From positions 57,290,001 to 57,354,000 of the forward strand of contig CM059432.1 of assembly GCA_030390025.1 (NCBI GenBank): a stretch of DNA of 64,000 nt. The letters run 5' to 3'. Position numbers and translations under genes: made by a program. Origin of the DNA: Squalus acanthias (Eukaryota). A model generated the notes under the pieces. That model was not told the DNA's origin and did no database searches. It worked only from the letters and a program-made list of their open reading frames with translations. Shown one piece after another: positions 5,430 to 54,409 of the stretch (positions are counted from its first letter, which is position 1; every line of letters starts with the position of its first letter).

Positions 5430-7063
5430 TGTAAGGGGTGACCTGCGGCTCTGTGCTTAGCCTGGGTGCTAGTGCGGGGTTAGGCCTTGTTGCCTGCTCT
5501 GGTCTCCAGCCAGCCTGGTAATACTAGACACCTGTGAGTGGTTCGACCCACTCGCCCTTACGGTTCTGACACTGGACTTAGGTGCGAGAGCAATAATGCA
5601 GAGAAGACTCAGGTAGACCCGGTTGAATATGCGAAATGGAAAATCTTTATTGCATATTATTCAAGATTACGAGATACATGTCATAAGCACAGATTAACGA
5701 CAGTACAATCTTACACACAGTTATGAAACTAATTTTAGGGAAACGAGGAGCGCACGACACATCGTAAAAGGGGACACACATTATAATTATCCTTAAAACT
5801 TAAACCCTCCCCTATCAATACCTGTCCTAATCTAGATTTGTAGGATCGAGACTCATGCTCACCACTCGGGACAATTCGGAGGATTCTAAATCGATGTTCG
5901 GATGCTTTCGCCACCGCACCTGACCACTCACGTGTTGGTCAAGGGTCTCTGCGCCTCACTTGTTTACTCGTTTCTGCTCCGGCTAGTAGGCTGGACCGCC
6001 TGCGGCCATGAAGATCTGTGTTGGTTTTCAGAGTTCGGACACCCCTCAAAGAAGAGTCTTCCTGTGCCCTCACCGGTTCGATAGAACTCGAAGAAGGGTC
6101 TTCCTAGGCCAGTTGTGGAGTAGCCGATAAAATTCGAAGAAGTGTTTATTCGACTTACAGGTGCGGTCGGGGCTTACTGACCGTGGCGATACGTATTGTC
6201 GTCTTCTTCTCTTCTCATCTCATCTCATCTCATCTCATCTCCTCTCGGGCCTTCGGTTCCAACACCGTTTACCGACTTCTCGGGATGGTGCGCCCGCTTC
6301 CAGGCCTCACAGCCCAGTTCTCCACAGATCTTTGCGGCAAGCCACGAGGTTGATCCTAGCGGATCAGAGTCCAGAGCCGTCAGGCAAGAGAATAAAAGTT
6401 CAGCAGCCTTCCAGCGAGTCAAAGCAGCAAGAGAAAGATGGACGGTTGTACCTTACAGTTATAGTGCTGTAATTCCTCTTTTCCCGCCCAATCTTAATGT
6501 CTATCTTTTGTCAGGGTTTTGGCGCTCAAACTTCTTGTATGGGGTGATCTCAGTCTTTAATGGGTTTCGGTGACACTTGTAACTGTCTGAGTACCCGTTA
6601 ATATTTCTCCCATTGTGGAACCGGCTAGTAGTCTCCCTGGAGGGGTTTTGGGGCTTCCAAATGCTTGCTGTGAGTACCCGCAAACGACTCTCTCATCGTA
6701 GAGTCGTGGGGATTTTGCATATTAATGTCTTTGGATGGGTCCTTGATCGCTCAGTACAATAGCCCTTGTTTGCACCTGGGAGACCGATTTCAGTATTCAT
6801 GTTTAAAGTGTAAACCCATCGTGTCTTGTCATTATCTCATCATGTTGGATCTTTTCGATCTTGCACAAATGTTTATTGGAACGCCATCTTGTCTGCCTAC
6901 TGAAAGTCTAGAACTTTCTGCCACGAGGTGTGGCGGCCATTTTACAGGCTGTTTGTGTCCATTTTGAAACCTGACAGCATTCTGCTGAAATAAAGCTGTT
7001 TATACGAAACTTTATGTCTCCTTCTTATTTTTATAAAATCGCGATAATTTTGCGAATTCTACA
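5430..7063 (-). repeat. 3' LTR (1634 bp)
   Basis: Direct repeat of 18513-20146 at offset 13083. Minus-strand AATAAA at 5646-5651. Internal (CTCAT)n tract near 6213-6242. Confidence 0.97.
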
Positions 7064-7075
7064 GTCCCTCCTGTT
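7064..7075 (-). promoter_or_regulatory. Polypurine tract
   Basis: Minus strand AACAGGAGGGAC directly abuts the TG of the 3' LTR. Confidence 0.6.
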
Positions 7076-8407: not shown

Positions 8408-10554
8408 TTACGCGGTGCTTTCATCGTGCACGCGCACGTAACGTTCTCGCCACTCTCCCGTGTTTTCGTTCTTGGTGAGGCGTTTGCCTCTCTTACAGTG
8501 TATGACCAATAAGTATATCACAATAAACACTTGGCATACAACTAAAATGTGGGAGGCTATTCTAATCCAGGAAGGCACTTCAATGTTGGTGAACAGATCC
8601 CACCACGGTGGAATTACTATGTCTAGAATTTCCGTCCCTATCTCGACAGTCTTTTGTTCTAGGGTGTAAAAATGTTTTTGCGATACCGCGACGGCTTTCA
8701 AAAGCTTGGTGAGGTGTTCAGGGAGAGGGGGAATGAGGTATCCGAAATGCGCGACGAATCGCTGTAAGTCGGTGAAGTTCTCTTTTACTGTAAGATGAAC
8801 AGTGGATGGTTCAGGGATCGGGACAATTCGCTGTTGTGCCACTTGAACTTCCGCCCTGGGTTTAAAACAGAAACTGCTGTCACTCACCGGACACCGGCTA
8901 CGGTTTCCATGCTGGTAGTGTTGCGCTGCAGTGGTAACACAATATGTTCCACCCCCGATGTATGCTACCTGCGGAGGCACATGATCTTGTGCCATTGCCT
9001 CCATGGTGCAATTCATGGGCTTGGCGCCAGCCGTTCTGAACCCGCACTGTGGTGTTAAAAAGGCATTCAAGTGCTGGGGACACAGTATTATGTGTGCTCC
9101 CCGGCCACGACAACCAGAGAGATCTGTACCTGTCATCGTTTGCTCCCAGCGGATGACGTAAGGTGGAACCACTGCATAGCGAATGTGGGCTCCCCCCTGA
9201 ATGACACCAATGTTCTCTACCCGATACACCGGGGCGGGCTTTGCTGTGTCGCCCAAAACCGGCATACGTAATACTATACCCATGATGGTGTGGTTTGATC
9301 GTCCGCAGTCCACGGGGACTGGGTATGCTTCTGAAGCTAGCCTGAGCTGGCACGGGCTTAATGCGTTCTGAAAAGGGTGGAGCGCCTGCAGGTGTTTGTT
9401 ACTTATCCAGGACGGGACCAAACCTTGTTTTAAATCCTCCAAATTACTGCGGTCCTCGCCCAGTAACCACGCCCCGTAAAGCACGCACACCTCGTTCTGC
9501 GCAGTCTGATCGGACGCATTCCGATCTTCCCTAATCAGGGCATTTACCGTACGCGCATGTTTCTCTAGTTCAGCTATTATTTCTTTTAAATGGAGAGTCA
9601 TGGCCTGGTCCTCGTGTAACCCAGACCCAACCACCTTATTTTCATCTGTGAGAATATTCTTTAATTGTGTTTTTAAGCCATTAATCTGGGTCTGCAGCTC
9701 CACGCTGTCTAGAGCGTTGACCACAGATGTACCTGTATTGAAAGCAGTGAACATGTCGTTCACAACACCCCTTCTTTGCCTCCCTACCTGACCCAAAACT
9801 TCATGTGGTGCGGTGTACAAACTTGTTTTATCAATTTCCGCGAAATCGAACTCATAAAATTGCCTAAACATCTTGGTCAACAGGACCTGATATAACTGTT
9901 CCGTCTCTTTGGGGCACCACTCCGGCAACCGCACCTCGGTGAGGTTTAAAATCACCGAGGCCACCGCGTAATGTACCCCCTGAAATAGTATCTGGTCTGT
10001 AGGGACCAATACCAAACCATTCCCGGGTCCCTTACTGGTTTTTGGGCACCCTTCTTCCTTAGCTAGAACCACCGGAATTGTGGGCGGGGCCTTGCGTGGG
10101 CGCGTAATGAGTTCAGTGGCATTTACCGGGATCGAAGAGTATGGAGCTCCGCACCCCCTGGTGCTCGCATCCCACCTCATCCCCTGCCCGTTATCCTGCC
10201 ATTGATTGATGAAAAATATGGAGATGCCTTTGGGGCAAACTTGCTTTGACCCCCACATACATACATAAATTCCCTCATCCGGTTCCCACCATTTGTCCCA
10301 ACAGACTCTCACTTGTCCGTTTGTCCCCGTAATTGTCCGATGGGTATTATTACCCAGTCGCTCGCACTCAACCGAAGAGTTCCTCATGTTTTTGCTCAGC
10401 TTTCGCAGCCACCACCATCGGCTCAATGGGACATTCCCATTACAAGTCAAACAAATCCGTTTGCCGACGGTGACGCTGACTCTGGGTGCGATGATCCTCA
10501 CTTTGGGGCACATTAAAGAAGTCTCTTTGTAGGCAAAACCCGATGTACTGGAAT
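8408..10554 (-). CDS. env: Envelope glycoprotein, C-terminal 714 aa: Ig-like domain plus F-like class I fusion protein (gene split by CR1)
   Basis: Ig motifs VSVTVG..CLTC, W, DEGIYVC; furin site RQRR (9770-9781); fusion-peptide/heptad region GVVNDMF...LQTQINGLKTQLKNIL; long Cys-rich segment; second heptad; PPWWDLF; TM ILVVCQVFIVIYLLVIHC; basic cytoplasmic tail. Confidence 0.85.
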
Positions 10555-10557
10555 ACT

Positions 10558-10830
10558 CAGCGTCGACAGTGGGGGAGGAGGAGCCTTTCTTTCTTTCTCT
10601 CTCCCACAGAGCGGTCGGCAGCGGGGAAGGAGGGGCGGACCTGGTTGGAGCGGCAGAGGCCTGAGGTGAGTCATTAAAGGGAGGCCCGAGGCTCAGGTAG
10701 GCCTCAGACCAGCGTCGACAGCGGGGGAGGAGGAGCCTTTCTTTCTTTCTCTCTCCCACAGAGCGGTCGGCAGCGGGGAAGGAGGGGCGGACCTGGTTGG
10801 AGCGGCAGAGGCCTGAGGTGAGTCATTAAA
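10558..10830 (+). repeat. 152-bp tandem monomers (about 1.8 copies) at the CR1 5' end
   Basis: CAGCGTCGACAG...GGTGAGTCATTAAA starts at 10558 and again at 10710, near-identical. Confidence 0.9.
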
Positions 10831-11115
10831 CTCACCTACGTGGCCTTTTTCCCCAGCGGGGAAAGAGCTTCGCGGGCTTTTTCAAAGGCAGGGGGCGGGG
10901 CCAATTCATTGGTACCCGTATATAGGTGGAGCGGTTGCTAAACCCGAGACACTAAACTAGTAGTGACTCCCACCCTCCCACCTCCTCTAACCATTAGGGG
11001 TAGAGGGAATTTAAAAGGTAGGTTCGATTTTATATTTTGTTTTCAGGGACTTAACTCCTGGACCTAAGATAAATAAGTTTAAATTTTAGTAATAAAGTAA
11101 CATAAGGGTTAAGTC

Positions 11116-12060
11116 ATGACAGGAAGTCTCGGACCCGTTTCATGCTCCTCCTGTGCCATGTGGGAAACCAGGGACACTTCCAGTGTCCCTGACAACTACG
11201 TGTGCGGGAAGTGTGTCCAGCTGCAGCTCCTGACAGCCCGCATGGCGGTGCTGGAGCTGCGGGTGGACTCACTCTGGAGCATGCACGATGCCGAGAACTC
11301 GGTGAATCGCTCATTTAGTGAGTTGTCCACACCGCAGGTAAAGGCTAGGACAGACAGTGAATGGGTGACCAAGAAGCAGGGCAATATCAGGAAGGTAGTG
11401 CAGGAGTCCCCTGTGGTCATCTCCCTCCAAAACAGGTATGCCGCTTTGGATACTGTTGGGGGAGATGGCCTACCAGGGGAAGGCACTAGCAGCCAGGTTC
11501 ATGGCACCATGGCTGGCTCTGCTGCACAGCAGGGCGGGAAAAAGAGTGGTAGGGCTATAGTGATAGGGGACTCAATTGTAAGGGGAATAGACAGGAGTTT
11601 CTGTGGCCGCAACCGAGATTCCAGGATGGTATGTTGCCTCCCTGGTGCAAGGGTCAAGGATGTCTCTGAGCGGCTGCAGAACATTCTGAAGAGGGAGGGT
11701 GAACAGCCAGCTGTCGTGGTGCATGTAGGTACCAACGATATAGGTAAAAAGCGGGAAGAGGTCCTACAAGCAGAATTTAGGGAGCTAGGAGCTAAATTAA
11801 AAAGTAGGACCTCTAAGGTAGTAATCTCTGGATTGCTACCAGGGCCACGTGCTAATCAGAATAGAGAGAACAGGATAGTGAGATTGAATACGTGGCTTGA
11901 GCAGTGGTGCAGGAGGGAGGGATTCAAATTCCTGAGGCATTGGAATCAGTTCTGGGGGAAGTGGGACCTGTACAAAAGGGACGGTCTGCACTTGGGCAGG
12001 ACTGGAACCGATGTCCTCGGGGTAATATTTGCTAAAGCAGTTCGGGAGGATTTAAACTAA
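11116..12060 (+). CDS. CR1 ORF1p (zinc finger, leucine zipper, SGNH/GDSL esterase-like domain)
   Basis: CSSC...CGKC; heptad leucines; IVIGDSIVR, CLPGA, HVGTND and DGLHL esterase blocks. Confidence 0.92.
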   Translation: MTGSLGPVSCSSCAMWETRDTSSVPDNYVCGKCVQLQLLTARMAVLELRVDSLWSMHDAENSVNRSFSELSTPQVKARTDSEWVTKKQGNIRKVVQESPVVISLQNRYAALDTVGGDGLPGEGTSSQVHGTMAGSAAQQGGKKSGRAIVIGDSIVRGIDRSFCGRNRDSRMVCCLPGARVKDVSERLQNILKREGEQPAVVVHVGTNDIGKKREEVLQAEFRELGAKLKSRTSKVVISGLLPGPRANQNRENRIVRLNTWLEQWCRREGFKFLRHWNQFWGKWDLYKRDGLHLGRTGTDVLGVIFAKAVREDLN

Positions 12061-12107
12061 TATGGCAGGGGAATGGGAACCTATGTAGCGAAACAGGGGG
12101 AAGTAAT

Positions 12108-15044
12108 ATGCAGTCAGAAACAAATGTTAGAAGGGTGAGAAACAATAGGGGAAGGCCGAGTAAACAAAGGCAAGAAACACAAAGGGCCATACTAAATCAT
12201 AAGTCTAAAAGGACAAAGGATGTTAATAAAACAAGCCTAAAGGCTCTGTGTCTTAATGTAAGGAGTATCCGTAATAAGGTGGATGAATTGACTGTGCAAA
12301 TAGATGTTAACGGATACGATGTGATTGGGATTACAGAGACGTGGCTCCAGAACAATCAAGGCTGGGAACTGAACATCCAGGGGTATTCAACATTCAGAAA
12401 GGATAGAATAAAAGGAAAAGGGGGTGGGGTAGCATTGCTGGTTAAAGAGGAGATTAATGCAATAGCTAGGAAGGACATCAGCTTGGAGGATGTGGAATCA
12501 ATATGGGTTGAGCTGCAGAACACCAAAGGGCAGAAAACGTTAGTGGGAGTTGTGTACAGACCTCCAAACAGCAGTAGTGAGGTGGGGGAGGGTATGAAAC
12601 AGGAAATCAGAGGTGCGTGCAAAAAAGGCACGGCAGTTATCATGGGTGACTTTAATATGCATATAGATTGGGCTACTCAAACTGGAAGCAATACGGTGGA
12701 GGAGGATTTCCTGGAGTGTTTAAGGGATGGTTTCCTAAACCAATATGTTGAGGAACCAACTCGAGGGGAGGCCATCCTGGACTGGGTGTTGTGTAATGAA
12801 GAGGGACTAATCAGCAATCTTGTGGTACGAGGCCCCCTGGGGAAGAGTGACCATAGTATGGTGGAGTTCTACATTAGGATGGAGAAGGAAACAGTTAAGT
12901 CAGAGACCATGGTCCAGAACTTAAATAAGGGCAACTTTGAGGGTATGAGGCGTGAATTGGCGAGGTTAAATTGGCAAGCGATATTTAAGGGGCTATCAGT
13001 GGAAGGGCAATGGCAGACATTTAGAGATCGCATGGATGAACTACAACAATTGTACATCCCGGTCTGGCATAAAAATAAAAAAGGGAAGGTGGCTCAACCA
13101 TGGCTAACAAGGGAAATCAGGGATAGTATTAAAACCAAGGAAGTTGCATACAAATTGGCCAGAAGTAGCAGCAAACCCGGGGACTGGGAGAACTTCAAAA
13201 CTCAGCAGAGGAGGACGAAGGGTTTGATTAGGGCAGGGAAAATAAAATATGAAAGGAAGCTTGCAGAGAACATTAAAATGGACTGCAAAAGCTTCTATAA
13301 ATATGTAAAAAGAAAGAGGTTAGTAAAAACAAACGTAGGTCCCCTGCAGTCGGAAACAGGGGAAGTCGTAATGGGGAACAAGGAAATGGCAGATCAATTG
13401 AACAAGTACTTTGGTTCGGTGTTTACTGTGGAGGACACACACAACCTGCCGGAAATAAAAGGGGTCAGAGGATCTGGTAAGAGGGAGGAGCTGAGGGAAA
13501 TCCTTATTAGTCGGGAAAAGGTATTGGGGAAATTGATGGGACTGAAGGCTGAAAAATCCCCGGGGCCTGATGGTCTGCATCCCAGAGTACTTAAGGAGGT
13601 GGCCTTGGAAATAGTGGATGCATTGACGATCATTTTCCAACATTCCTTAGACTCTGGATCAGTTCCGATGGAGTGGAGGGTGGCCAATGTAACCCCTCTT
13701 TTTAAAAAAGGAGGGAGGGAGAAAGCAGGGAATTATAGACCGGTCAGCCTGACATCGGTCGTGGGTAAAATGATGGAAGCAATTATTAAAGATGTCATAA
13801 CAGACCATTTGGAAAGTGGTGACATGATAGGTCCAAGTCAGCATGGATTTGTGAAAGGGAAATCATGCTTGACAAATCTTCTGGAATTTTTTGAGGATGT
13901 TTCCAATAGGGTGGACAGGGGGGAACCAGTAGATGTGGTGTATTTGGACTTTCAGAAGGCCTTCGACAAGGTCCCACACAAGAGATTGGTGAGCAAAGTT
14001 AAAGCACATGGGATTGGGGGTAATGTGTTGACGTGGATTGAGAACTGGTTGGCACACAGGAAACAAAGAGTAGGAGTAAATGGGTACTTTTCAGAATGGC
14101 AGGCAGTGACCAGCGGGGTACCGCAGGGTTCGGTGCTGGGACCCCAGCTGTTTACATTATATATTAATGATTTGGACGAAGGGATTAAATGTAATATCTC
14201 CAAATTTGCGGATGACACTAAATTGGGAGGCAGTGTGAACAATGAGGAGGATGCTAGGAGGCTACAGAGTGACTTGGACAGGTTGGGTGAATGGGCAAAT
14301 GTATGGCAGATGAAGTACAATGTGGATAAATGTGAGGTTATCCACTTTGGTGGTAAAAATAGAGAGGCGGACTATTACCTGAATGGTGGCAGATTAGGGA
14401 AAGGGGACGTGCAACGAGACCTGGGCGTCATGGTACATCAGTCACTGAAGGTGGGAATGCAAGTGCAGCAGGCAGTCAAGAAAGCAAACGGAATGATGGC
14501 CTTCATAGCAAGGGGATTTGAGTACAGGAGTAGGGAGGTGATGATACAGTTGTACAGGGCTTTGGTGAGGCCACACCTGGAGTATTGTGCGCAGTTTTGG
14601 TCTCCTAACTTAAGGAAGGACATTCTTGCTATTGAGGGAGTGCAGCGAAGGTTCACTAGATTGATTCCTGGGATGGCCGGACTGACATATCAAGAAAGAT
14701 TGGGTCAACTGAACTTGTATCCTCTGGAGTTCAGAAGAATGAGGGGGGATCTTATAGAGACATTTAAAATCCTGACTGGTTTAGACAAATTAGATGCGGG
14801 CAGAATGTTCCCAATGGTAGGGAAAACTAGAACCAGGGGTCACAGTCTAAGGATTAAGGGGAAGCCATTTAGGACTGAGCTGAGGAGGAACTTCTTCACC
14901 CAGAGAGTGGTGAATCTATGGAATTCTCTTCCACAGAAGGTTGTTGAGGCCAGTTCGCTAAATATATTCAAAAGGGAGTTAGATATAACACTCACAACTA
15001 AGGGGATCAAGGGGTATGGCGAGAAAGCAGGAATGGGGTACTGA
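12108..15044 (+). CDS. CR1 ORF2p (APE endonuclease plus reverse transcriptase), intact, 978 aa
   Basis: LNVRS, ITETW, YRPP, GDFN, SDH; RT motifs YLDFQKAFD, GVPQGSVLGP, FADD. No stops; frame is open from 12051. Confidence 0.97.
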   Translation: MQSETNVRRVRNNRGRPSKQRQETQRAILNHKSKRTKDVNKTSLKALCLNVRSIRNKVDELTVQIDVNGYDVIGITETWLQNNQGWELNIQGYSTFRKDRIKGKGGGVALLVKEEINAIARKDISLEDVESIWVELQNTKGQKTLVGVVYRPPNSSSEVGEGMKQEIRGACKKGTAVIMGDFNMHIDWATQTGSNTVEEDFLECLRDGFLNQYVEEPTRGEAILDWVLCNEEGLISNLVVRGPLGKSDHSMVEFYIRMEKETVKSETMVQNLNKGNFEGMRRELARLNWQAIFKGLSVEGQWQTFRDRMDELQQLYIPVWHKNKKGKVAQPWLTREIRDSIKTKEVAYKLARSSSKPGDWENFKTQQRRTKGLIRAGKIKYERKLAENIKMDCKSFYKYVKRKRLVKTNVGPLQSETGEVVMGNKEMADQLNKYFGSVFTVEDTHNLPEIKGVRGSGKREELREILISREKVLGKLMGLKAEKSPGPDGLHPRVLKEVALEIVDALTIIFQHSLDSGSVPMEWRVANVTPLFKKGGREKAGNYRPVSLTSVVGKMMEAIIKDVITDHLESGDMIGPSQHGFVKGKSCLTNLLEFFEDVSNRVDRGEPVDVVYLDFQKAFDKVPHKRLVSKVKAHGIGGNVLTWIENWLAHRKQRVGVNGYFSEWQAVTSGVPQGSVLGPQLFTLYINDLDEGIKCNISKFADDTKLGGSVNNEEDARRLQSDLDRLGEWANVWQMKYNVDKCEVIHFGGKNREADYYLNGGRLGKGDVQRDLGVMVHQSLKVGMQVQQAVKKANGMMAFIARGFEYRSREVMIQLYRALVRPHLEYCAQFWSPNLRKDILAIEGVQRRFTRLIPGMAGLTYQERLGQLNLYPLEFRRMRGDLIETFKILTGLDKLDAGRMFPMVGKTRTRGHSLRIKGKPFRTELRRNFFTQRVVNLWNSLPQKVVEASSLNIFKRELDITLTTKGIKGYGEKAGMGY

Positions 15045-15143
15045 GGTAGCATGTTCAGCCATGAACGCATTGAATGGCGGTGCAGGCTCGAAGGACCGAA
15101 TGGTCTACTCCTGTACCTATTTTCTATGTTTCTATGTTTCTAT

Positions 15144-15340
15144 GAATTCGTTCCCAGCCATCCTGGCCACCTTCCCTTGTGGAAATAGGTGGTGGTCTCC
15201 TCAGCCTCTCGCCTTCCGGTCCCATCCACCGCGATGGGGGCCGTGTCCCCGGAGCATCCAAACACCACGACATCCTTGGTGCGGCCTCGATAGGCCAATC
15301 CACATCCAAATGCCGCGAGCACTACCAGAATCCGTTCCAT
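15144..15340 (-). CDS. env: Envelope glycoprotein N-terminus with signal peptide
   Basis: MERILVVLAAFGCGLA after a strong Kozak ATG (aggATGg). Joins the C-terminal part in frame as ..WLGTNS|STSGF.. once the CR1 and one GAAT copy are removed. An upstream in-frame ATG exists at 15451. Confidence 0.8.
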
Positions 15341-15642
15341 CCTTCCTTGGTTCCTGTGATCAGATAGAATGAGGTAGCCAGCCTCCCAAGAGTCTCTGGC
15401 TTTTGTGAAGGGTGAGCGGGTCCCCTGACCTCGCCTCACGTAAGAAGACATGTGCGCTGGATAGACTTTAACTATTCCTATTTCTAACTCCCATCATTTT
15501 ACCATTTTCTGTTAAAAAATTAAACTACAAACTTAACCTGATTTAAAACTATAAACTTAAACTTATAAACTTATAAACTCATCCTAAACTTATCACTTAT
15601 CTTAATAACTGTAGAGTGCCGCCCGTTCCCAGGGCGGCCTAC

Positions 15643-16685
15643 TCAAATTCTGCGGTTGCTGCCGCAGGCTTCTCCCAACGGTGGGAGGGCATTGACCCCT
15701 CCCTTTGATCTGCCGCAGCCTGTTGCTGCTGCGCTGTGACTGGGCTCTCCCTGGGCTGCCTTAGCCCTGGGCCTACGCTTAGGGACATACGGGGGACTTA
15801 CCCACATCTTTCTGGGCTGGGGTTTCCGACTTGACCTACGGGGAACTACCGGGGGCAGGAACTCCAGGACTGACGGACCGGGTTCCGAGACTTCCACCGT
15901 GGCGACCTGTGGTCCCACCACAGTCGCTGGCTCCGCCTCCCCTAACTCCGCCTCCCTGAACTCGGGATCTGCAGCTTGTGGCACCACCCTACTTGGCCCA
16001 GTAGGCGGCCCTTCACTCGCAGTCCCTACCTCCCTCGAGGGCAAGACGTTCAAGGCGGGCGGCTCGGGCTCTGAGGCTTCCATCGCCACGCCCTGTGGTC
16101 CCACCACAGCGCTGGCTCCGCCTCCCCTAGCTCCGCCCCCCTGCGTTCGGGACCTGCAGCTTCGGCCTCCACCCTGTGTGGATCTCTATCTGCAGCCCCT
16201 GTCTCCCCTATACCTGAATCGGGGGCGACCCTTTCGTCCTCCGATTCCAGCTCCTCTTCGCTTGTGTCACTATCTTGGTCGAGCTTCTCGAACTCTTCCT
16301 CATCTGGCTCCCAACCCAAATAAAGGATCCTACATTTTGCTAGGATGTCCTCTCCCCTGATGCAGGCTGCTTTGCCTGCCTGTGTGCCCTGTGGCCCTAC
16401 CCGGGGCTGCGAGTCCCCACTCGCAGGTTTGGCCCCTGTGGTTGGCCCTTGTGCACCCGGCTTATGCAGTTTGCACTGATTAAAATCCTCATACTCCCTG
16501 CTTCTGGCTACCCTGTAGGCTGCCTTTATCTCTCTAAGCTGCCCTTCTAGCACGTCTATTTTTCCCATTAAACGGGCGTTCTCCTCCCGCAAGGCCTGCT
16601 CTTTTAACCTGGCCTCCTTACAGGAGACCCCCTCCTGTGCGTTTCTTTTAAAAGGACACAGGTAGGCAGGCTGCGTGGGCTCTAG
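15643..16685 (-). pseudogene. Non-pol ORF in the gag readthrough frame (Gag-like coiled coil, acidic stretch, Pro/Glu repeats); one 1-nt frameshift; about 347 aa if repaired
   Basis: In frame with gag after TGA-CTAG. ORFs 16050-16592 and 15643-16107 join when the base missing at 16109/16110 (present in the sister repeat) is restored. Confidence 0.7.
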
Positions 16686-18508
16686 TCATTGGGTACTGTT
16701 GGACGGGGCTGCGGCATCTGCGGGGCCGGTAGCGACTGCCACCCTTCCTTGCGAAATCATGAGGGTGCGCATGGCTCCCAACATTGATTCGATCGCATCG
16801 GGATGGATAGTTGCACCAGCTCCCCTATCAGAAACAGGCGCCTAGGCTCGGACTGCGGGATTTTTATCCCTGGACTCCTTCCAAGGATTCCTGCAGTTCT
16901 TGCGCCAGTGCCCTGTCTTTCCGCATCCGAAACAAGCATTACTGGCCTGTGGGACGCGATTTCCCTCCTGATGCCACTCCTTTTGAGCCGGGGCTGTGGG
17001 CCGCGCCTCATGCACCTTTCCCTTAAGGGGACGTGCTCCCGTACTCCTGGTATTACGGTACCCTACCGTGAGTCGATTTAGGACCGACTCCTCTGTAGTG
17101 GCGGGGTTAGTGGGATCAAACCACGCTTTGGCCTGCTCCCTGACGGCTGGCAAACTGTTGGCTACTACACACCTGAGCCAATGAGTTAAACCGACGCCGT
17201 TCAAATAGGCGCGCTCTGGCGCACCTGGGCAGCTACGCTGGTATACTGGCCACAGCCTGTCGGCGAAAACCTTCGGGGGTTCTCCCTCCATCTGCACTGT
17301 TTGTCCCAATCTAACGAACGGACCTTCATCGTCCGCTCCCAACACTTCCAGGACCTCGTCCCTCAATTCCCCATAAGTGTTATTTCCCCTCTTGCTCTCG
17401 TCTGAGAGACACTGAAGGATCGAGCTGTCTAATGAGAACAACAGCATTTTTGCTTTTCCCCCATCGTCGCAGCCGTTAATGGCTGCGGTTTGTTCTACCT
17501 CCCTGAAATGTATGGAAGGGTCGTCTGACTCGGACAGCTTCCGTACGTGACTGATCATAGCCCTCAGCTGGTGTGAGCTGTGAGGCAACACAAGCTGGTT
17601 GAGGAGATTCCCCGCTTCCCCATCGTCTTTGTTCGGGCCCCTTTTGATACCCGTAACCGGACACAACGGTCCCGGCTTCACTTCTACCTCAGGGGGCTGT
17701 ACTACCTCGGGGACCTCTTCCTCTACTTCTACCACTTCCTTCCTTACCCAGGTTGCCGAATAGCTGGGTGGCGCGGAGGGCACAGTGGCAAATACCTCCT
17801 CTGCCTTGTTCGGTGGGGATTTCTGAAATTCCCCACCCACCAGCGGCTGGTGTGCTGACGGGCTGATAAGGCACACCATGCCGTGCGCTTTATTCAGGGC
17901 CTCTTTAAGGTTCCCTATCTCTCTTTGGCAGACGCTGTGATCGGCCCCCTCATGTTTATCCTCGAGGGCCATCTTATATGCCGCCCTAACCCCCGTTAAG
18001 CTCTCTTCCTGGGCTTTTATTTGGGCAGCTAGGCGGGCACATCGTTCCTTTATTCTGCCCTCATTTAACTTTGCCTCAGTGACCTGGCACTCGAGGTAAT
18101 CTATTTTCGCCTCATGGTGGTTGGCGACTAACTGGCGTTCTTGATGCAACGCATTTAAAGACGCGATGAGCTGCTGCCCCCCCGCGACCTTCTCGTCCAT
18201 TTCCACCTCTAAACCCTTGATCTGAGCTGCCTGCGCTAAGATGACCTGGTCCGAAAACTGGACTTGTCTTTTATAGCACATCAGCCAGACCGCTTTCTCT
18301 ACTGTTCTTTTATGTTCCTTGCTACCTGTCCACCTCACGGCTGCCTCTAGTGGACGCTTATCCACCAGCAGGTCACTTATCCATTTCTTAGTGAAATTCA
18401 CTTTTCCAAACACATATCTGCTATTCTCTCTTCCATAACATTTCGCCCATTCATACCAGGGTCTAACACATTATTTTCTCGCTGCCAGTGTCCCTTCGTG
18501 GTCGCCAT
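16686..18508 (-). pseudogene. gag: Gag (coiled coil, capsid-like region, CCHC zinc knuckle); about 607 aa if repaired
   Basis: CFGCGKTGHWRKNC knuckle. The ATG at 18508 opens MATTKGHWQRENNV...MCLEK, one base out of frame with ORF 16842-18413 near 18402-18405. TAG at 16842-16844 is followed by 51 open codons to TGA at 16686-16688. Confidence 0.82.
18490..18507 (-). promoter_or_regulatory. Primer-binding site, tRNA-Arg(TCG)
   Basis: TGGCGACCACGAAGGGAC, 5 nt inside the 5' LTR; complementary to the vertebrate tRNA-Arg(TCG) 3' end ...GTCCCTTCGTGGTCG-CCA (recalled sequence). Confidence 0.85.
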
Positions 18509-18512
18509 TATC

Positions 18513-20146
18513 TGTAAGGGGTGACCTGCGGCTCTGTGCTTAGCCTGGGTGCTAGTGCGGGGTTAGGCCTTGTTGCCTGCTCTGGTCTCCAGCCAGCCTG
18601 GTAATACTAGACACCTGTGAGTGGTTCGACCCACTCGCCCTTACGGTTCTGACACTGGACTTAGGTGCGAGAGCAATAATGCAGAGAAGACTCAGGTAGA
18701 CCCGGTTGAATATGCGAAATGGAAAATCTTTATTGCATATTATTCAAGATTACGAGATACATGTCATAAGCACAGATTAACGACAGTACAATCTTACACA
18801 CAGTTATGAAACTAATTTTAGGGAAACGAGGAGCGCACGACACATCGTAAAAGGGGACACACATTATAATTATCCTTAAAACTTAAACCCTCCCCTATCA
18901 ATACCTGTCCTAATCTAGATTTGTAGGATCGAGACTCATGCTCACCACTCGGGACAATTCGGAGGATTCTAAATCGATGTTCGGATGCTTTCGCCACCGC
19001 ACCTGACCACTCACGTGTTGGTCAAGGGTCTCTGCGCCTCACTTGTTTACTCGTTTCTGCTCCGGCTAGTAGGCTGGACCGCCTGCGGCCATGAAGATCT
19101 GTGTTGGTTTTCAGAGTTCGGACACCCCTCAAAGAAGAGTCTTCCTGTGCCCTCACCGGTTCGATAGAACTCGAAGAAGGGTCTTCCTAGGCCAGTTGTG
19201 GAGTAGCCGATAAAATTCGAAGAAGTGTTTATTCGACTTACAGGTGCGGTCGGGGCTTACTGACCGTGGCGATACGTATTGTCGTCTTCTTCTCTTCTCA
19301 TCTCATCTCATCTCATCTCATCTCCTCTCGGGCCTTCGGTTCCAACACCGTTTACCGACTTCTCGGGATGGTGCGCCCGCTTCCAGGCCTCACAGCCCAG
19401 TTCTCCACAGATCTTCGCGGCAAGCCACGAGGTTGATCCTAGCGGATCAGAGTCCAGAGCCGTCAGGCAAGAGAATAAAAGTTCAGCAGCCTTCCAGCGA
19501 GTCAAAGCAGCAAGAGAAAGATGGACGGTTGTACCTTACAGTTATAGTGCTGTAATTCCTCTTTTCCCGCCCAATCTTAATGTCTATCTTTTGTCAGGGT
19601 TTTGGCGCTCAAACTTCTTGTATGGGGTGATCTCAGTCTTTAATGGGTTTCGGTGACACTTGTAACTGTCTGAGTACCCGTTAATATTTCTCCCATTGTG
19701 GAACCGGCTAGTAGTCTCCCTGGAGGGGTTTTGGGGCTTCCAAATGCTTGCTGTGAGTACCCGCAAACGACTCTCTCATCGTAGAGTCGTGGGGATTTTG
19801 CATATTAATGTCTTTGGATGGGTCCTTGATCGCTCAGTACAATAGCCCTTGTTTGCACCTGGGAGACCGATTTCAGTATTCATGTTTAAAGTGTAAACCC
19901 ATCGTGTCTTGTCATTATCTCATCATGTTGGATCTTTTCGATCTTGCACAAATGTTTATTGGAACGCCATCTTGTCTGCCTACTGAAAGTCTAGAACTTT
20001 CTGCCACGAGGCGTGGCGGCCATTTTACAGGCTGTTTGTGTCCGTTTTGAAACCTGACAGCATTCTGCTGAAATAAAGCTGTTTATACGAAACTTTATGT
20101 CTCCTTCTTATTTTTATAAAATCGCGATAATTTTGCGAATTCTACA
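18513..20146 (-). repeat. 5' LTR (1634 bp)
   Basis: Copy of 5430-7063, adjacent to the PBS. Confidence 0.97.
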
Positions 20147-20777
20147 GAGGGTTTGAGTACAGGAACAAGGATGTCTTGCTGCAGTTGTACAGGGCCTTGG
20201 TGAGACCACATCTTGAGTATTGTGTGCAGTTTTGGTCGCCTTATCTGAGGAAGGAGGTTCTTGCCATGGAAGGAGTTCAGCGAAGATTCACCAGACTGAT
20301 ACCTGGGATGGCAGGAATGACGTATGAGGAGAGATTGGGTCGATTGGGCTTATACTCGCTGGAGTTTAGAAAAATGAGAGGGCATCTCATTGAAACTTAT
20401 AAAATTCAGACAGGACTGGACAGACTAGATGCAGGAAGGATGTTCCCGATGGTCGGGGAGTCCAGAACCAGGGGTCACAGTCTAAGGATAAGGGGTAAGC
20501 CATTTAGGACAGAAATGAGGAGGAATTTCTTCACCCAGAGAATGGTGAACCTGTGGAATTCTCTACCACAGAAGGCAGTAGAGGCCAATTCATTAAATAT
20601 ATTCAAGAAGGAGGTGGATATATTTCTTAAGGCTAAAGGGATCAAGGGATATGGAGAGAAAGCAGGGACAGGGTTCTGAATTTGGATGATCAGCCATGAT
20701 CGCATTGAATGGCAGAGCAGGCTAGAGGGGCCGAATGGCCTACTCCTGCTCTATCTTCTATGTTTCTATGTTTCTAT
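20147..20777 (+). mobile_element. CR1 ORF2 3' part and tail (continuation of 3541-5429)
   Basis: GFEYRNKDVLLQLYRALVRPHLEYCVQFWSP; (TTTCTATG)n tail. Confidence 0.95.
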
Positions 20778-26850: not shown

Positions 26851-29800
26851 GGGCTCGATTTTGCCTTTGAGGGCGGGCTGGGGCGTGTCAGGTGGTTTTC
26901 GTGTCAGGACCCCGACTCTGATGTGAAGTGGGAAAAAAGTGCGATTTTTCCTTAATTGGGCACTTGATTTCCAGCGTGTGGAAACCCCTGGCCCAATGAG
27001 TCTTTTCAAACAGAAAGTCGCCTCCGATGACGTCATCAATGCTGCTGGATTTAAGGCCTGCAAAGCCTTGCTTCTTCTGGAGACTTTAAACTTTATGCCC
27101 ATTGTTGTGATCGCTTCATTCAGCAACTATGTCCAGCAGTAGGCCAAAGTGTGCTCCAAGATTCGATGAGGCCTCCCTCCAAGCTCTGATGCAGGGAGCA
27201 AGATCAAATAAGGAGGTGCTCTTCCCTTCCTCAGGGAGGAAAAAGCCTCCCCAGCAGACTAAAGCTGTGTGGATGCAAGTCGCCCAGGAGGTCAACTCAA
27301 TCTCTATGTGCCGCAGAACCTGGCTGCAGTGCAGGAAGAGGTTTCATGACCTTCTCCGCACAGGAAAAGTGAGTATGACTTTCCCATCACCCTCAATCTG
27401 ATCCCCATCGCCTCTCCTCACCAGCACTCTGCTTTGCCAACATCTTCCTCCACATCCCACTTGACACTGACATCCCTGCACCCTTACCCATTCCCTCTCT
27501 CTCTATGGTCACATTCACTTAACTATTCGACCATGCAGCCCTCACGTTCCCTATCACTGTGATGCAATGACAACAACTTACAACACACAGGGAGGGCCCT
27601 TTGTCTCCTTCTAAGCATCTATGCTATGGATTCTCTACACTCACGCCTTCATTCTCACTCAAACTCCACTTGTGTCCATCATTGCAGGAAAAGAGAGCCC
27701 ACAATAAGAGGGAAAGAGCGAGGACAGGAGGAGGGCCACCCTCAGTAGCCCAGCTCACCACCTCGGAGGAGGCAGGCCCTGGAAATCGCCGGTGTCGAGG
27801 AAGATTCGCAAGTGGGGGACGGACAGACGGGCGCATCACAGCAAGCTGGTGACAGAATAGTTTGGCATCTCTCTCATTGACATTGCATGAATGACCGATA
27901 ATGATTCTGATGCTCTAACAGATTGACTAATGATCATCTGCACAATTCAACGTGCATGCAACCTTTACCTCACATCTCTAACTCTTTCCTTTACTCCCTC
28001 ACAGGACCATCGACAGCCCCCGTCCCCACTGTCCAGGAGGAACAACCTGAGCTTCAAGACTCCTCAGAGGAAGCTGCAACCTCTGAGGGCGTAGCGTCAG
28101 CAGAATTCAGTGCACCCAGCACCAGCGCAGACACTCACACCTCAGGTGGGACCTTCGCGAGATAGAGTAGTGTTGTCACCTGGTGTATCACAGCTCACAA
28201 GTGAGCATCAGCAGATGGTGGAGACAGGGACAGCAGTGGAGAGTCCTCGTCGGAGGGCGCAAGACTCTCCCAGCTCGGCTCAGCTGCACGTCGACCCTGT
28301 GCCTCCGGGTCCATCCAGAAGGAGAGCGGTGCTGGAACTCCAGGAACAGGTGCAGGAGTCTCTGGCAGGTTTTGTCTCCAGGGTCGCTGCGAGTGTGGAG
28401 CGAATGGAGGAGTCCATCGTGAATGTGAGCAGAGCCTTTGTTGAGGCATTGGCGCATGAACGCATCACCACGGAAAGGATGGCAAACTCCGTGGAAAGGA
28501 TGGCTATGGTAGAGGAGCGGATGGCTACGGCCATGGAGGAGCTAAGTCGCCAGAGTGTTGAAAACATGGTCATTGTTCAGAATAGACTTCCATCTCTTGA
28601 GGAGCGATGGTCAGCTATCGAGCATAGAAACCAGACCTTCATGGAAGTCCTCTGGAGTAGGACTTCCAGTGCAGAAACGGGTCTTCATGGCCCCCCTGAT
28701 GTGCAGCAAGGTGCTGTCAAGCCACTTGCTAGTTCTGAAGTGGGGCTGACCCATGAGAGGGATGTTGGTAGCAGACAGCAAGGAAGTGGGGGCTCCTCTC
28801 CAAGCGCTCACACAACCATGCCACAGCAAAGCCCTCGGTCAGAGCCCCACCAGAGTCCTCATCCAACTGAGATGGGCGTCTCATCCCCTGCACAGCCGCA
28901 GGAGCAGCAGACTGTTACCGAGCCCTCACAGGTTCGCAACCCCAGAGGACGGCCGCCAAAAGTGTCGAGACAGGAGCAGCAAGAAAGTGAGCAAGGGGCC
29001 TCCACATCTGCTGAAGCCACAGGGGAAGCACCACGTAGGAGCATGCGTAAGAGGAAGATAATGCACAAGTAGTCACAAGGGTAGTCACTTGGGTGTTATG
29101 TTGTGTTTATTTTTGAAATGCCATCAGTTGCTTGTTGTGACAAAAAAATTCTGATGGCAAACTGTTGAAGTTGTGGCCTGTGTCATTTCGCAAATGGGAC
29201 TTCCACATTGAGGGCTTAGAGCGACTTGCAATTGTCAGTATGGTGGTCAGAGTGACAGGAATCCGCAGGTTCTTGTCCATTGTCGATGCTCTGGTAAGAA
29301 GGTGCGAGGCAAAAGTGTTTGATTGTGCAGGCTAAGCAAATCTGGCCAACAGGAGTGCGTCCCTTGCATCCCGGGCAGGAATGTGGTCGCGCGCTGGCGC
29401 CTTCTGACCTGTGCAGCTTCAGGTGGGTGAGCAGCAGCTTGGCACTCCTGTTGTTGCTGTTGCTGCTGCTGTTGGTGCTGCTGTTGTTCATGGTTCTGCT
29501 GCTGCCACGGCTGGTCTTCGTCTGAATATGATGTCCAGGAGGAAAGGAAATAAATGGTTCCCATGCTTCTGCTATATACCTCAGTTGAGGAAGCTCAGTC
29601 AAGGTGGGGAGAGGGGTTTCCCAGGAGGTCACGCTGGAGATGGGTGTCAGGCTTCAAATTTCCACAACAATGAGTATGCCTGCTAAAAGTTCCCCCAGAC
29701 CTGAGACAACAAAGTTCTGCCACCTGCAAATGATCATTGGTGAAAACTCCTTTTTAATGGTGGAGCTGCAGCTGTTAGTAAGCAATCCACTTGTGAGGCC

Positions 29801-52448: not shown

Positions 52449-53488
52449 ATGTGTGCCGTTTATACTGTCTCACCTTGGTCCTCAGAAGCGGACCATGATG
52501 AACCCCAACACCAGCAGCATCAGGCGGCACACCAGCAGCACCAACAACACCATCAACCTTCTCCTCAACCACCTGGTGCTGCACAGGACAGAGGTCGTCA
52601 GCGCAGGGCTGAACCGCGTCAGTGGCGATACCCCCAACACAGGATATACAGGCAGAGGATGAGCTTCCTCAACATGACTGAGCAGCAGTGCCAAAGGAGG
52701 CTCAGGCTATGGCGCCAGGTCGTCGCAGACATTTGCAGATTGCTGGAGCAAGACCTGCAGCCCAGAGGTGCGGGTGGACATGCCTTACCAGTGGCTGTTA
52801 AAGTCACCAACGCCCTCAACTTCTTTGCCTCAGGCTCCTTCCAGGGATCTGCAGCAGACATTTGTGGCATCTTGCAGTTGGCTGCCCACAGATGCATCAC
52901 ACAGGTCACCGATGCCCTCTTTGACAAGTGAGCCAATTATATCAACTTTGCCACTGATGAAGCCAGTGTTACTGAGCGGGTGCTCAGCTTTGCCGCTCTG
53001 GCTGGCTTCCCACGGGTGCAGAGAGTCATCGACTGCACACATGTGGCCATCAGGGCACCTCATCATAACCCAGGAGTCTTTGTCAATCGCAAGGGCTTCC
53101 ACTCCCTTAATGTACAGCTCATCTGCAACCATAGGAAGATCATCATGCATATGTGCACAAAATTCCCTGGCAGCTGTCATGACTCTTTCATCCTGCGCCA
53201 GTCCACCCTTCCTCAGCTCTTCGCTCCTCCAAACAGACTTTCCGGCTGGCTGCTTGGAGACAAGGGCTATCCACTGAAGACGTGGCTCATGACACCCTTG
53301 AGGAGGCCAAGTACTGAGGCCGAGGAGAGATATAATAAAAGCCACATTTTCACCAGATGTGTCATAGAGCAGACAATAGACATGCTGAAAATGCGCTTCA
53401 GATGCCTTGACAGATCTGGAGGAGCCCTTCAGTACGCACCAGCCAGGGTCTCCAGAATCATCGTGGTCTACCGCACCCTGCACAGCAT
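52449..53488 (+). pseudogene. Harbinger DDE transposase (HARBI1-family fold), in-frame TGA at 52929-52931, 3' end disrupted
   Basis: [37 protein letters not shown]. Confidence 0.92.
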
Positions 53489-54409
53489 GGGAGTAATTTT
53501 CGGGGAGTCAGCGGGTGTGTTTGGTGGCGGGTCGGGTGGGAAAACATTTTTTTTGACAGTGGGTCGGGATCCCGCTGTCAACCCGCCGCCACGCGACTTT
53601 CCCAGATGTCAGGTCTGTCAGCGCTGAACAGACCCGACTCCAAGCGGCGGGGGAAGCAATTCAGGTCATTATGACCTTGTTAACAGCCCATTAAGAAGTA
53701 TTTTGAGCTCACCTTTACATTTATGAGGTCGCCCATGGGGTCCACGCTGCTCGGGGATCACGTCAGGTAAGCAGGTCGGGAGTTGTATGACCATGGAATC
53801 ATCTCAATACTTGACAGCTGCAAATGTGCTATAAAAGCTCCCATCTCACAGCTGTTCACTTTCCAAGCTCAGAAGCTGTTGCTTACTGCATTTGGAAGAC
53901 AGATTGAGCTTTATGCAGGTTGCAAGTGTTTGGAGTAAACTTTCTATCCAGTGTCACCTCATTGGAACAACCTCTCTCACCATTGACAGATCGCTTCTGT
54001 CATCTCAAGTTCACCTGCCATCTATTACATCATTGAAACTATCTCACCTTGGTCCTCAGAATCCCACCACGATCAGCCCCAATACCAGCAGCATCAGGCA
54101 CGCCAGCTGCACCAACAACAACACCAACCTTCTCTGCAATCAACTGATGCTGCACAGGACACAAAGCATCAGCACCCGACCACATTGCTGTCCGGGACGC
54201 CAGGGATGGCTTCACCATGGTCAGATTTATATCACTTGATGCTGTATACCCTGGCTGCCACATGATGCGCCAGGTTGGCACCACCCCACACCAACACCAT
54301 AAAGCATCCCTACAATGTCCAAGCCATTCCTTTCACACTCATCACAGTAATGGAAACTTTACAGAAACATTTAATAAAACACCCAAGTGGCTACCCTTGT
54401 GAATCTACT

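Follow-up and report, generated by a model that had tools for sequence, protein, structure and literature searches.

Does an endogenous retrovirus (ERV) of the shark Squalus acanthias encode an envelope protein (Env) with an immunoglobulin (Ig) domain at its head, and if so, where might the domain have come from and what might it do? The question is raised by a 64,000-nucleotide stretch of contig CM059432.1 (assembly GCA_030390025.1, positions 57,290,001 to 57,354,000 of the forward strand; hereafter the window), which lies within a 3.7-Gb genome and holds a long terminal repeat (LTR) element on its minus strand. A first-pass annotation proposed that the env gene of this element fuses an Ig-like domain to a class I viral fusion protein. 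Our analysis indicates, with moderate confidence, that Env residues 87-184 adopt an Ig fold of the V/I type, and the domain has been maintained by purifying selection. Positions are those of the window (Table 1), and Env residue numbers follow uninterrupted sibling copies.

The Ig-type domain and its F-type core

The motifs that suggested the domain, VSVTVGKRICLTC, WWW and DEGIYVC, are present on the minus strand as placed, with a Cys pair spaced 61 residues apart, which fits the 55-75 expected for V/I-set domains. The B-strand Cys is Cys106 (10444-10442), the Trp run is Trp115-117 (10417-10409), and the F-strand D-x-G-x-Y-x-C extends from Asp161 to Cys167 (10261-10259). Shuffling the open reading frame (ORF) 20,000 times produced the pattern C-x(8-16)-W-x(35-60)-D-x-G-x-Y-x-C 3 times, a post hoc figure because the pattern was picked after the motif was seen.

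Profile and structure comparisons point the same way. Pfam Ig_3 matched the domain at E 0.0072 and 17.2 bits, below the curated cut-off of 30; the HMMER check suggested at the outset therefore yielded a sub-threshold Ig match, but no V-set or I-set match is listed. The best PDB profile match was the V domain of CRTAM (E 0.094), with the B-strand Cys, C-strand Trp, DxGxYxC motif and G strand in register over 92 profile positions. The predicted model and fold searches gave an Ig beta-sandwich, V and I chains tied within 1 Z unit in the fold search, and identity to Ig chains was 10-25%. Motifs, Atlas, model, fold searches and profile searches point to the Ig clan, with all scores sub-threshold, and our confidence in a V/I-type fold is moderate.

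Selection was assessed against three sister-family copies, which are about 52% identical in this region and mutually non-independent. The proportion of non-synonymous differences (pN) was 0.23-0.25 in the Ig domain, and that of synonymous differences (pS) was 0.83-0.85 (saturated). Flanking segments are less conserved (pN 0.37-0.39), and the F2 part is similar to the Ig domain (0.18-0.25). Ig variants common to at least two of the 15 top-scoring copies were 3 synonymous and 0 non-synonymous, small numbers from a sample biased to intact copies. The Ig domain is maintained by purifying selection, so the virus needed it.

Env consists of a signal peptide, a segment of about 65 residues, the Ig domain, a Pro-rich linker, a complete F-type fusogen with a furin site, and a membrane anchor. 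Fusion to the N-terminus of a class I fusion protein is borne out by the F-type core fold downstream of the Ig domain. The domain had also been placed between the signal peptide and the linker; the TRPRKAPP linker and F-like region follow as described, but about 65 conserved residues intervene after the signal peptide. This pre-Ig segment (residues ~19-86; 15143-15290 and 10502-10560, minus strand) has a strongly conserved motif rich in Trp, Gly and Ser. It received no Pfam or fold assignment and no usable Atlas match, and its predicted local distance difference test (pLDDT) score in the model is below 35.

The F core fold spans the whole Env ectodomain, and the fusogen part includes a long helix of the heptad type. 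Since the core alone already accounts for F 26-484, identity of the Ig domain with domain II of F was rejected. The furin site RQRR is at residue 327 (9781-9770), the fusion peptide region starts at 9769, and the membrane anchor is at about residues 734-754. No CX6CC, the mark of gamma-type Envs, was found among the Cys positions of the fusion subunit. A single-sequence phmmer search of whole Env against PDB returned one irrelevant match (E 1.3). The evidence supports a class I, paramyxovirus-F-like (class Ib) fusogen.

In the window copy, env is split by an antisense long interspersed nuclear element (LINE) that is young, with both frames open. Its 5' end contains a 121-bp direct repeat, and its 3' tail is short and tandem. 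The Ig domain lies on one side of the LINE and the signal-peptide piece on the other, so this copy is unable to make the Ig domain as a secreted protein. Signal peptide and Ig domain share one frame in 11 of 14 siblings. Uninterrupted natural Envs are 783 aa long, which replaces the 779 aa first given for a repaired Env.

Probable attachment role and its rivals

Furin cleavage would leave the Ig domain on the N-terminal (F2-like) subunit, and a trimer would carry three Ig heads on flexible Pro-rich linkers. The heads would bind a cell-surface protein, probably another adhesion or immune receptor of the Ig superfamily. The domain would give the F scaffold the attachment step, which paramyxoviruses place on a separate protein. 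Ig domain plus Pro-rich linker would parallel the IgV-like receptor-binding domain and proline-rich region of gammaretroviruses. On balance, we consider it probable that entry begins with the domain, carried on the N-terminal subunit in this way, binding to a cell-surface protein.

An immune function is considerably less probable. In that case the Ig-fold domain would act as a modulator or decoy that shields the fusogen or engages a host receptor of an inhibitory or major histocompatibility complex (MHC)-like kind, and the F core or pre-Ig segment would do the entry binding. Captured Ig domains serve large DNA viruses as immune modulators or decoys, and the top profile lead, CRTAM, is an immune receptor. 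Some relatives of Env have no N-terminal module, so the core is presumably able to attach alone. However, the domain is a covalent part of Env, where gamma-type Envs and coronavirus spikes carry receptor-binding modules, and it is strongly conserved, not fast-evolving.

Equally improbable, in our estimate, is a structural cap, in which the Ig-fold domain would pack with its flanks (Cys29, Cys84, Cys175, Cys203) and stabilize the prefusion trimer or aid folding, without being an independent binding module. The extra conserved cysteines and the highly conserved pre-Ig motif would suit such packing, and so would the unusual Trp content of the domain and the position of the last sandwich strand, which the model puts in the post-Ig segment (range to residue 195). 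Yet the Pro/basic linker sets the domain apart from the core, and sister lineages hold unrelated modules in the slot, which fits a loosely tethered module.

Least likely is a virus-derived beta-sandwich, non-homologous to the Ig superfamily, with a convergent Cys/Trp pattern; sub-threshold scores, low identity to Ig chains and the lack of a donor would allow it, but five methods, partly different in kind, indicate the Ig clan, the CRTAM landmarks are in register, and the motif is rare in shuffles.

Origin of the domain and the N-terminal slot

The V-type domain has the canonical Cys and Trp, so capture from a host gene appears likely on sequence grounds. The donor searches, however, gave none: the Ig alignment matched only 2 of 6292 longer-protein candidates, both ERV-derived, and the comparison with host Ig exons covered 30 exons. 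CRTAM is the best donor lead. The initial idea of a captured host Ig serving as receptor-binding or decoy domain thus survives as to attachment, the best inference, but not as to demonstrated host capture. Most likely, a vertebrate V-type domain was captured long ago into an N-terminal slot whose contents can be exchanged.

Related Env clades differ in what stands between signal peptide and core. A search of cluster representatives returned 51 proteins with E values of 0.001 or below, and the S. acanthias genome holds several further Env clades. One shark clade (P0012, UniRef label 'Ig-like domain-containing protein') has a second Ig-like module, whose merged profile matched host Ig at E 0.00026, and two frog Envs also carry an Ig-like module (E 0.0015 for P0019, 0.01 for the pair). 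The Logan protein P0034 carries a V domain that is clearly more host-like and lacks the canonical cysteines (probability 87%, Pfam V-set E 0.045); we take it to resemble CD2/CEACAM. A phmmer search of P0034 against PDB gave 0 matches. Of the modules compared, this host-like V domain on an F-type Env (P0034 and P0052, residues about 17-127) offers the best prospect of a capture recent enough to trace. Other clades with the same core (L080-L088, P0011, P0022) have Cys-rich or unassigned N-terminal modules.

In a core-only tree of 19 rows (P0039, L067, L069, L081 and L083 were excluded by choice; a length filter removed P0002 and L048), this Env joins Envs without Ig heads (support of 100 in the Shimodaira-Hasegawa-like approximate likelihood ratio test, SH-aLRT). 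A single clade for the 9 Ig-headed rows, some with weak Ig labels, was rejected by an approximately unbiased (AU) test run after the first tree was seen (p 4.6e-76), and at least 3 changes are needed. These results are compatible with several separate gains of Ig as well as with a single ancient gain followed by repeated replacement. Pairwise hhalign (E 0.03-0.3) did not show a common origin of this Ig domain and the other Env Ig-like modules. The merged Ig-like profile BCD matched this domain at E 0.0015, no better than it matched host Ig (E 0.00026), and two individual BCD profiles did not clearly beat shuffles. Env Ig-like modules resemble each other no more than they resemble host Ig.

A broader proposal is tentative, and we rate it below an even chance: the N-terminus of F-type Envs of aquatic-vertebrate retroviruses may be an exchangeable slot that took up host Ig-superfamily domains on several independent occasions (in this shark clade, the second shark clade, the frog elements and the one host-like V domain), and the present domain may bind an Ig-family adhesion receptor, e.g., a nectin-like one.

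The first-pass annotation knew of no retroelement Env with this layout. The view that none exists is not supported, as gamma-type Envs have an N-terminal IgV-like receptor-binding domain (RBD-C) and an alpha-like Env has a SIRP-derived IgV (10.1101/2024.03.17.585361, in the text available). In UniRef, moreover, a related Env from Chiloscyllium already bears the automatic label 'Ig-like domain-containing protein'. According to the accessible text of the same source, murine leukemia virus (MLV) and feline leukemia virus (FeLV) have a modified IgV as their receptor-binding domain, lineages have exchanged domains of this kind, and host capture was shown once, for alpha-like Env-Dbi (Hotzel, 10.1101/2024.03.17.585361). 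Those Envs are like this one in having an independently folding N-terminal IgV-type domain ahead of a class I fusogen, with modules swapped between lineages. They differ in their class Ia scaffold, whereas here the scaffold is F-type without CX6CC, about 65 residues precede the Ig domain, and no donor is recognizable. Since the idea of retroviral Envs with IgV heads already existed, the surprise is limited.

Class Ib scaffolds also accept receptor-binding modules, N-terminal in the coronavirus spike and inserted in foamy Env, and the part of the source seen names no N-terminal Ig-superfamily domain for class Ib fusogens (PMC11468914). The core fold of paramyxovirus and pneumovirus F, foamy Env and coronavirus spike is the same as here; F, however, has no N-terminal module and uses a separate attachment protein, and the foamy receptor-binding domain is inserted and of a different fold. 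The word 'immunoglobulin' is absent from the main text, as available, of PMC7947760, PMC9040795, 10.1101/2023.10.26.564294, 10.1101/2024.03.25.586437, PMC11089739, PMC13709493, PMC10435555 and PMC12583693. The literature searches brought up no F-type retroviral Env described with an Ig head; subscription papers, bioRxiv supplements (Hotzel; 10.1101/2023.10.26.564294) and Repbase were outside their scope.

The element, its lineage and its significance

The LTR element is bordered by a 4-bp target duplication, CCTC. With only 3 differences between its LTRs, TG...CA ends and this duplication, the insertion is very young. The family is abundant, with at least 63 scored matches, window included, at 97-100% identity over a 710-residue Env query. 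The closest named homologues of Env are from the cartilaginous fishes Rhinoraja, Pristiophorus, Scyliorhinus and Rhincodon.

Table 1. Features of the element and of the LINE inserted in it (window positions).
Feature	Position	Strand	Remarks
Ig V/I-type domain of Env (predicted), residues 87-184	10208..10501	-	Motifs, Pfam Ig_3, Atlas, model and fold searches
5' env piece	15143..15340	-	Signal peptide and most of the ~65-residue pre-Ig segment
Post-Ig segment and Pro/basic linker, residues 185-237	10049..10207	-	One conserved Cys, then linker
F-type (class Ib) fusogen ectodomain	8561..10048	-	F2-like part, furin site, fusion peptide region, heptad helices, F domains
Transmembrane anchor and short cytoplasmic tail	8408..8560	-	Anchor about 8560-8498; hydropathy
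LINE, 4.58 kb	10561..15142	+	Esterase-type (GDSL) ORF1 11113-12060; endonuclease-reverse transcriptase ORF2 12036-15044
5' LTR	18513..20147	-	1635 bp, TG...CA ends; 3 mismatches vs 3' LTR
3' LTR	5430..7064	-	1635 bp
Primer-binding site	18490..18507	-	Complementary to host tRNA-Arg(TCG)
gag frame	16845..18470	-	Coiled coil and CCHC knuckle; Pfam zf-CCHC E 0.0024
pol remnant	15646..16685	-	First codons and C-terminal tail; protease (PR), reverse transcriptase (RT), RNase H (RH) and integrase (IN) missing; short Gag-like coiled-coil piece at junction

The gag frame of the window copy stops sooner than in several siblings. The piece that replaces pol (16480-16685, minus strand) aligns with the Gag coiled coil over 43 aa at 37% identity (E 5e-6). 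The ORF at 16053-16685 was considered as a lokiretroviral smc gene because of its coiled coil and rejected, as it is pol remnant plus this Gag-like piece. Among 20 siblings with fetched upstream sequence, 9 share the pol-less junction and 10 have RT-RNase H. Copies with gag and env but no pol apparently form a shared subfamily whose spread is helped in trans. Immediately ahead of the pol frame (16683-16689, minus strand) is a TGA with CTAG after it; this context favours stop-codon read-through, as for Gag-Pol. A tract rich in pyrimidines that ends in AG (15500-15540, minus strand) precedes the env start and resembles a splice acceptor. No RNA dataset is listed among the holders of the element. 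No leader-to-env splice joint is listed in element-covering contigs of 4 runs, whose RNA nature is a guess, which is no evidence either way. Elsewhere, the window has a DDE_Tnp_4 transposase fragment (52932-53627, plus strand), presumably Harbinger-type, and a 325-aa low-complexity ORF (28095-29072, plus strand).

Pol of a sibling copy has the Pfam order PR-RT-RT_RNaseH-RNase_H-IN, in which tether and RNase H make a dual RNase H. Dual RNase H with an F-like Env characterizes lokiretroviruses and is not unique to them. Scores of the RT-tether region were highest, at 204-210 bits, for four retroviral RT chains that we take to be MLV-type, followed by 183-192 for the next five, presumably foamy-type, and 138-143 for Ty3. 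By eye, the RT motifs LDISNGFWS, LPQGFH and QYVDD and the RNase H motif CT-x-YLA-x-W-x-RRG are common to the family and snakehead retrovirus (SnRV), whereas the Loki RT rows compared show PFGY-x-NSP and [IV]YVDD instead; the integrase of the family resembles a Loki integrase. The family has a tRNA-Arg primer site, and SnRV reportedly uses a tRNA-Arg primer. From this comparison of motifs by eye rather than by a tree, the family is quite probably an SnRV-like ERV. A Ty3/gypsy errantivirus was rejected on the dual RNase H and the RT, which is nearer retroviruses. Troyka was rejected for its CG termini and 3-bp duplication (PMC12440569, in the part seen), against TG..CA and 4 bp here.

Lokiretroviruses have an F-like Env and, in the available text, none was found in 3 chondrichthyan genomes (Wang and Han, PMC7947760). 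Their Env is like this one in its F-like fold, signal peptide, RxxR site, membrane anchor and similar GP-x-G core start, and their Pol has dual RNase H; however, 22 of 23 published Envs start the core directly after the signal peptide, without an N-terminal module, and the published Pol sequences compared have a far longer protease region than the family here (PMC7947760, as available). SnRV-like ERVs are described as clade Huo (PMC6001957) and as CmiERV lineage I of the elephant shark (PMC4422223), so far as those texts were accessible, and the same portions describe no Env fold or Ig domain. The likeness to them lies in the RT and RNase H motifs and in a lineage known from cartilaginous fish.

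The assignment points to an F-type Env in SnRV-like shark ERVs. The Ig domain is a candidate receptor-binding domain for this lineage, for which we know of no receptor. At one end of the class Ib fusogens stand bare F proteins that rely on a separate partner for attachment, and at the other foamy Env and spike, whose binding domains are built in; the gain of such domains has so far been largely inferred. This family supplies many closely related natural Envs with one core and heads that are Ig-like, Cys-rich or none, so that gain and exchange of attachment modules are open to comparative study. If the N-terminal slot has been filled as proposed, this would mirror, on a class Ib scaffold, the capture of receptor-binding domains in gamma-type Env, and it would show a bare F machine turning into a self-sufficient attach-and-fuse protein.
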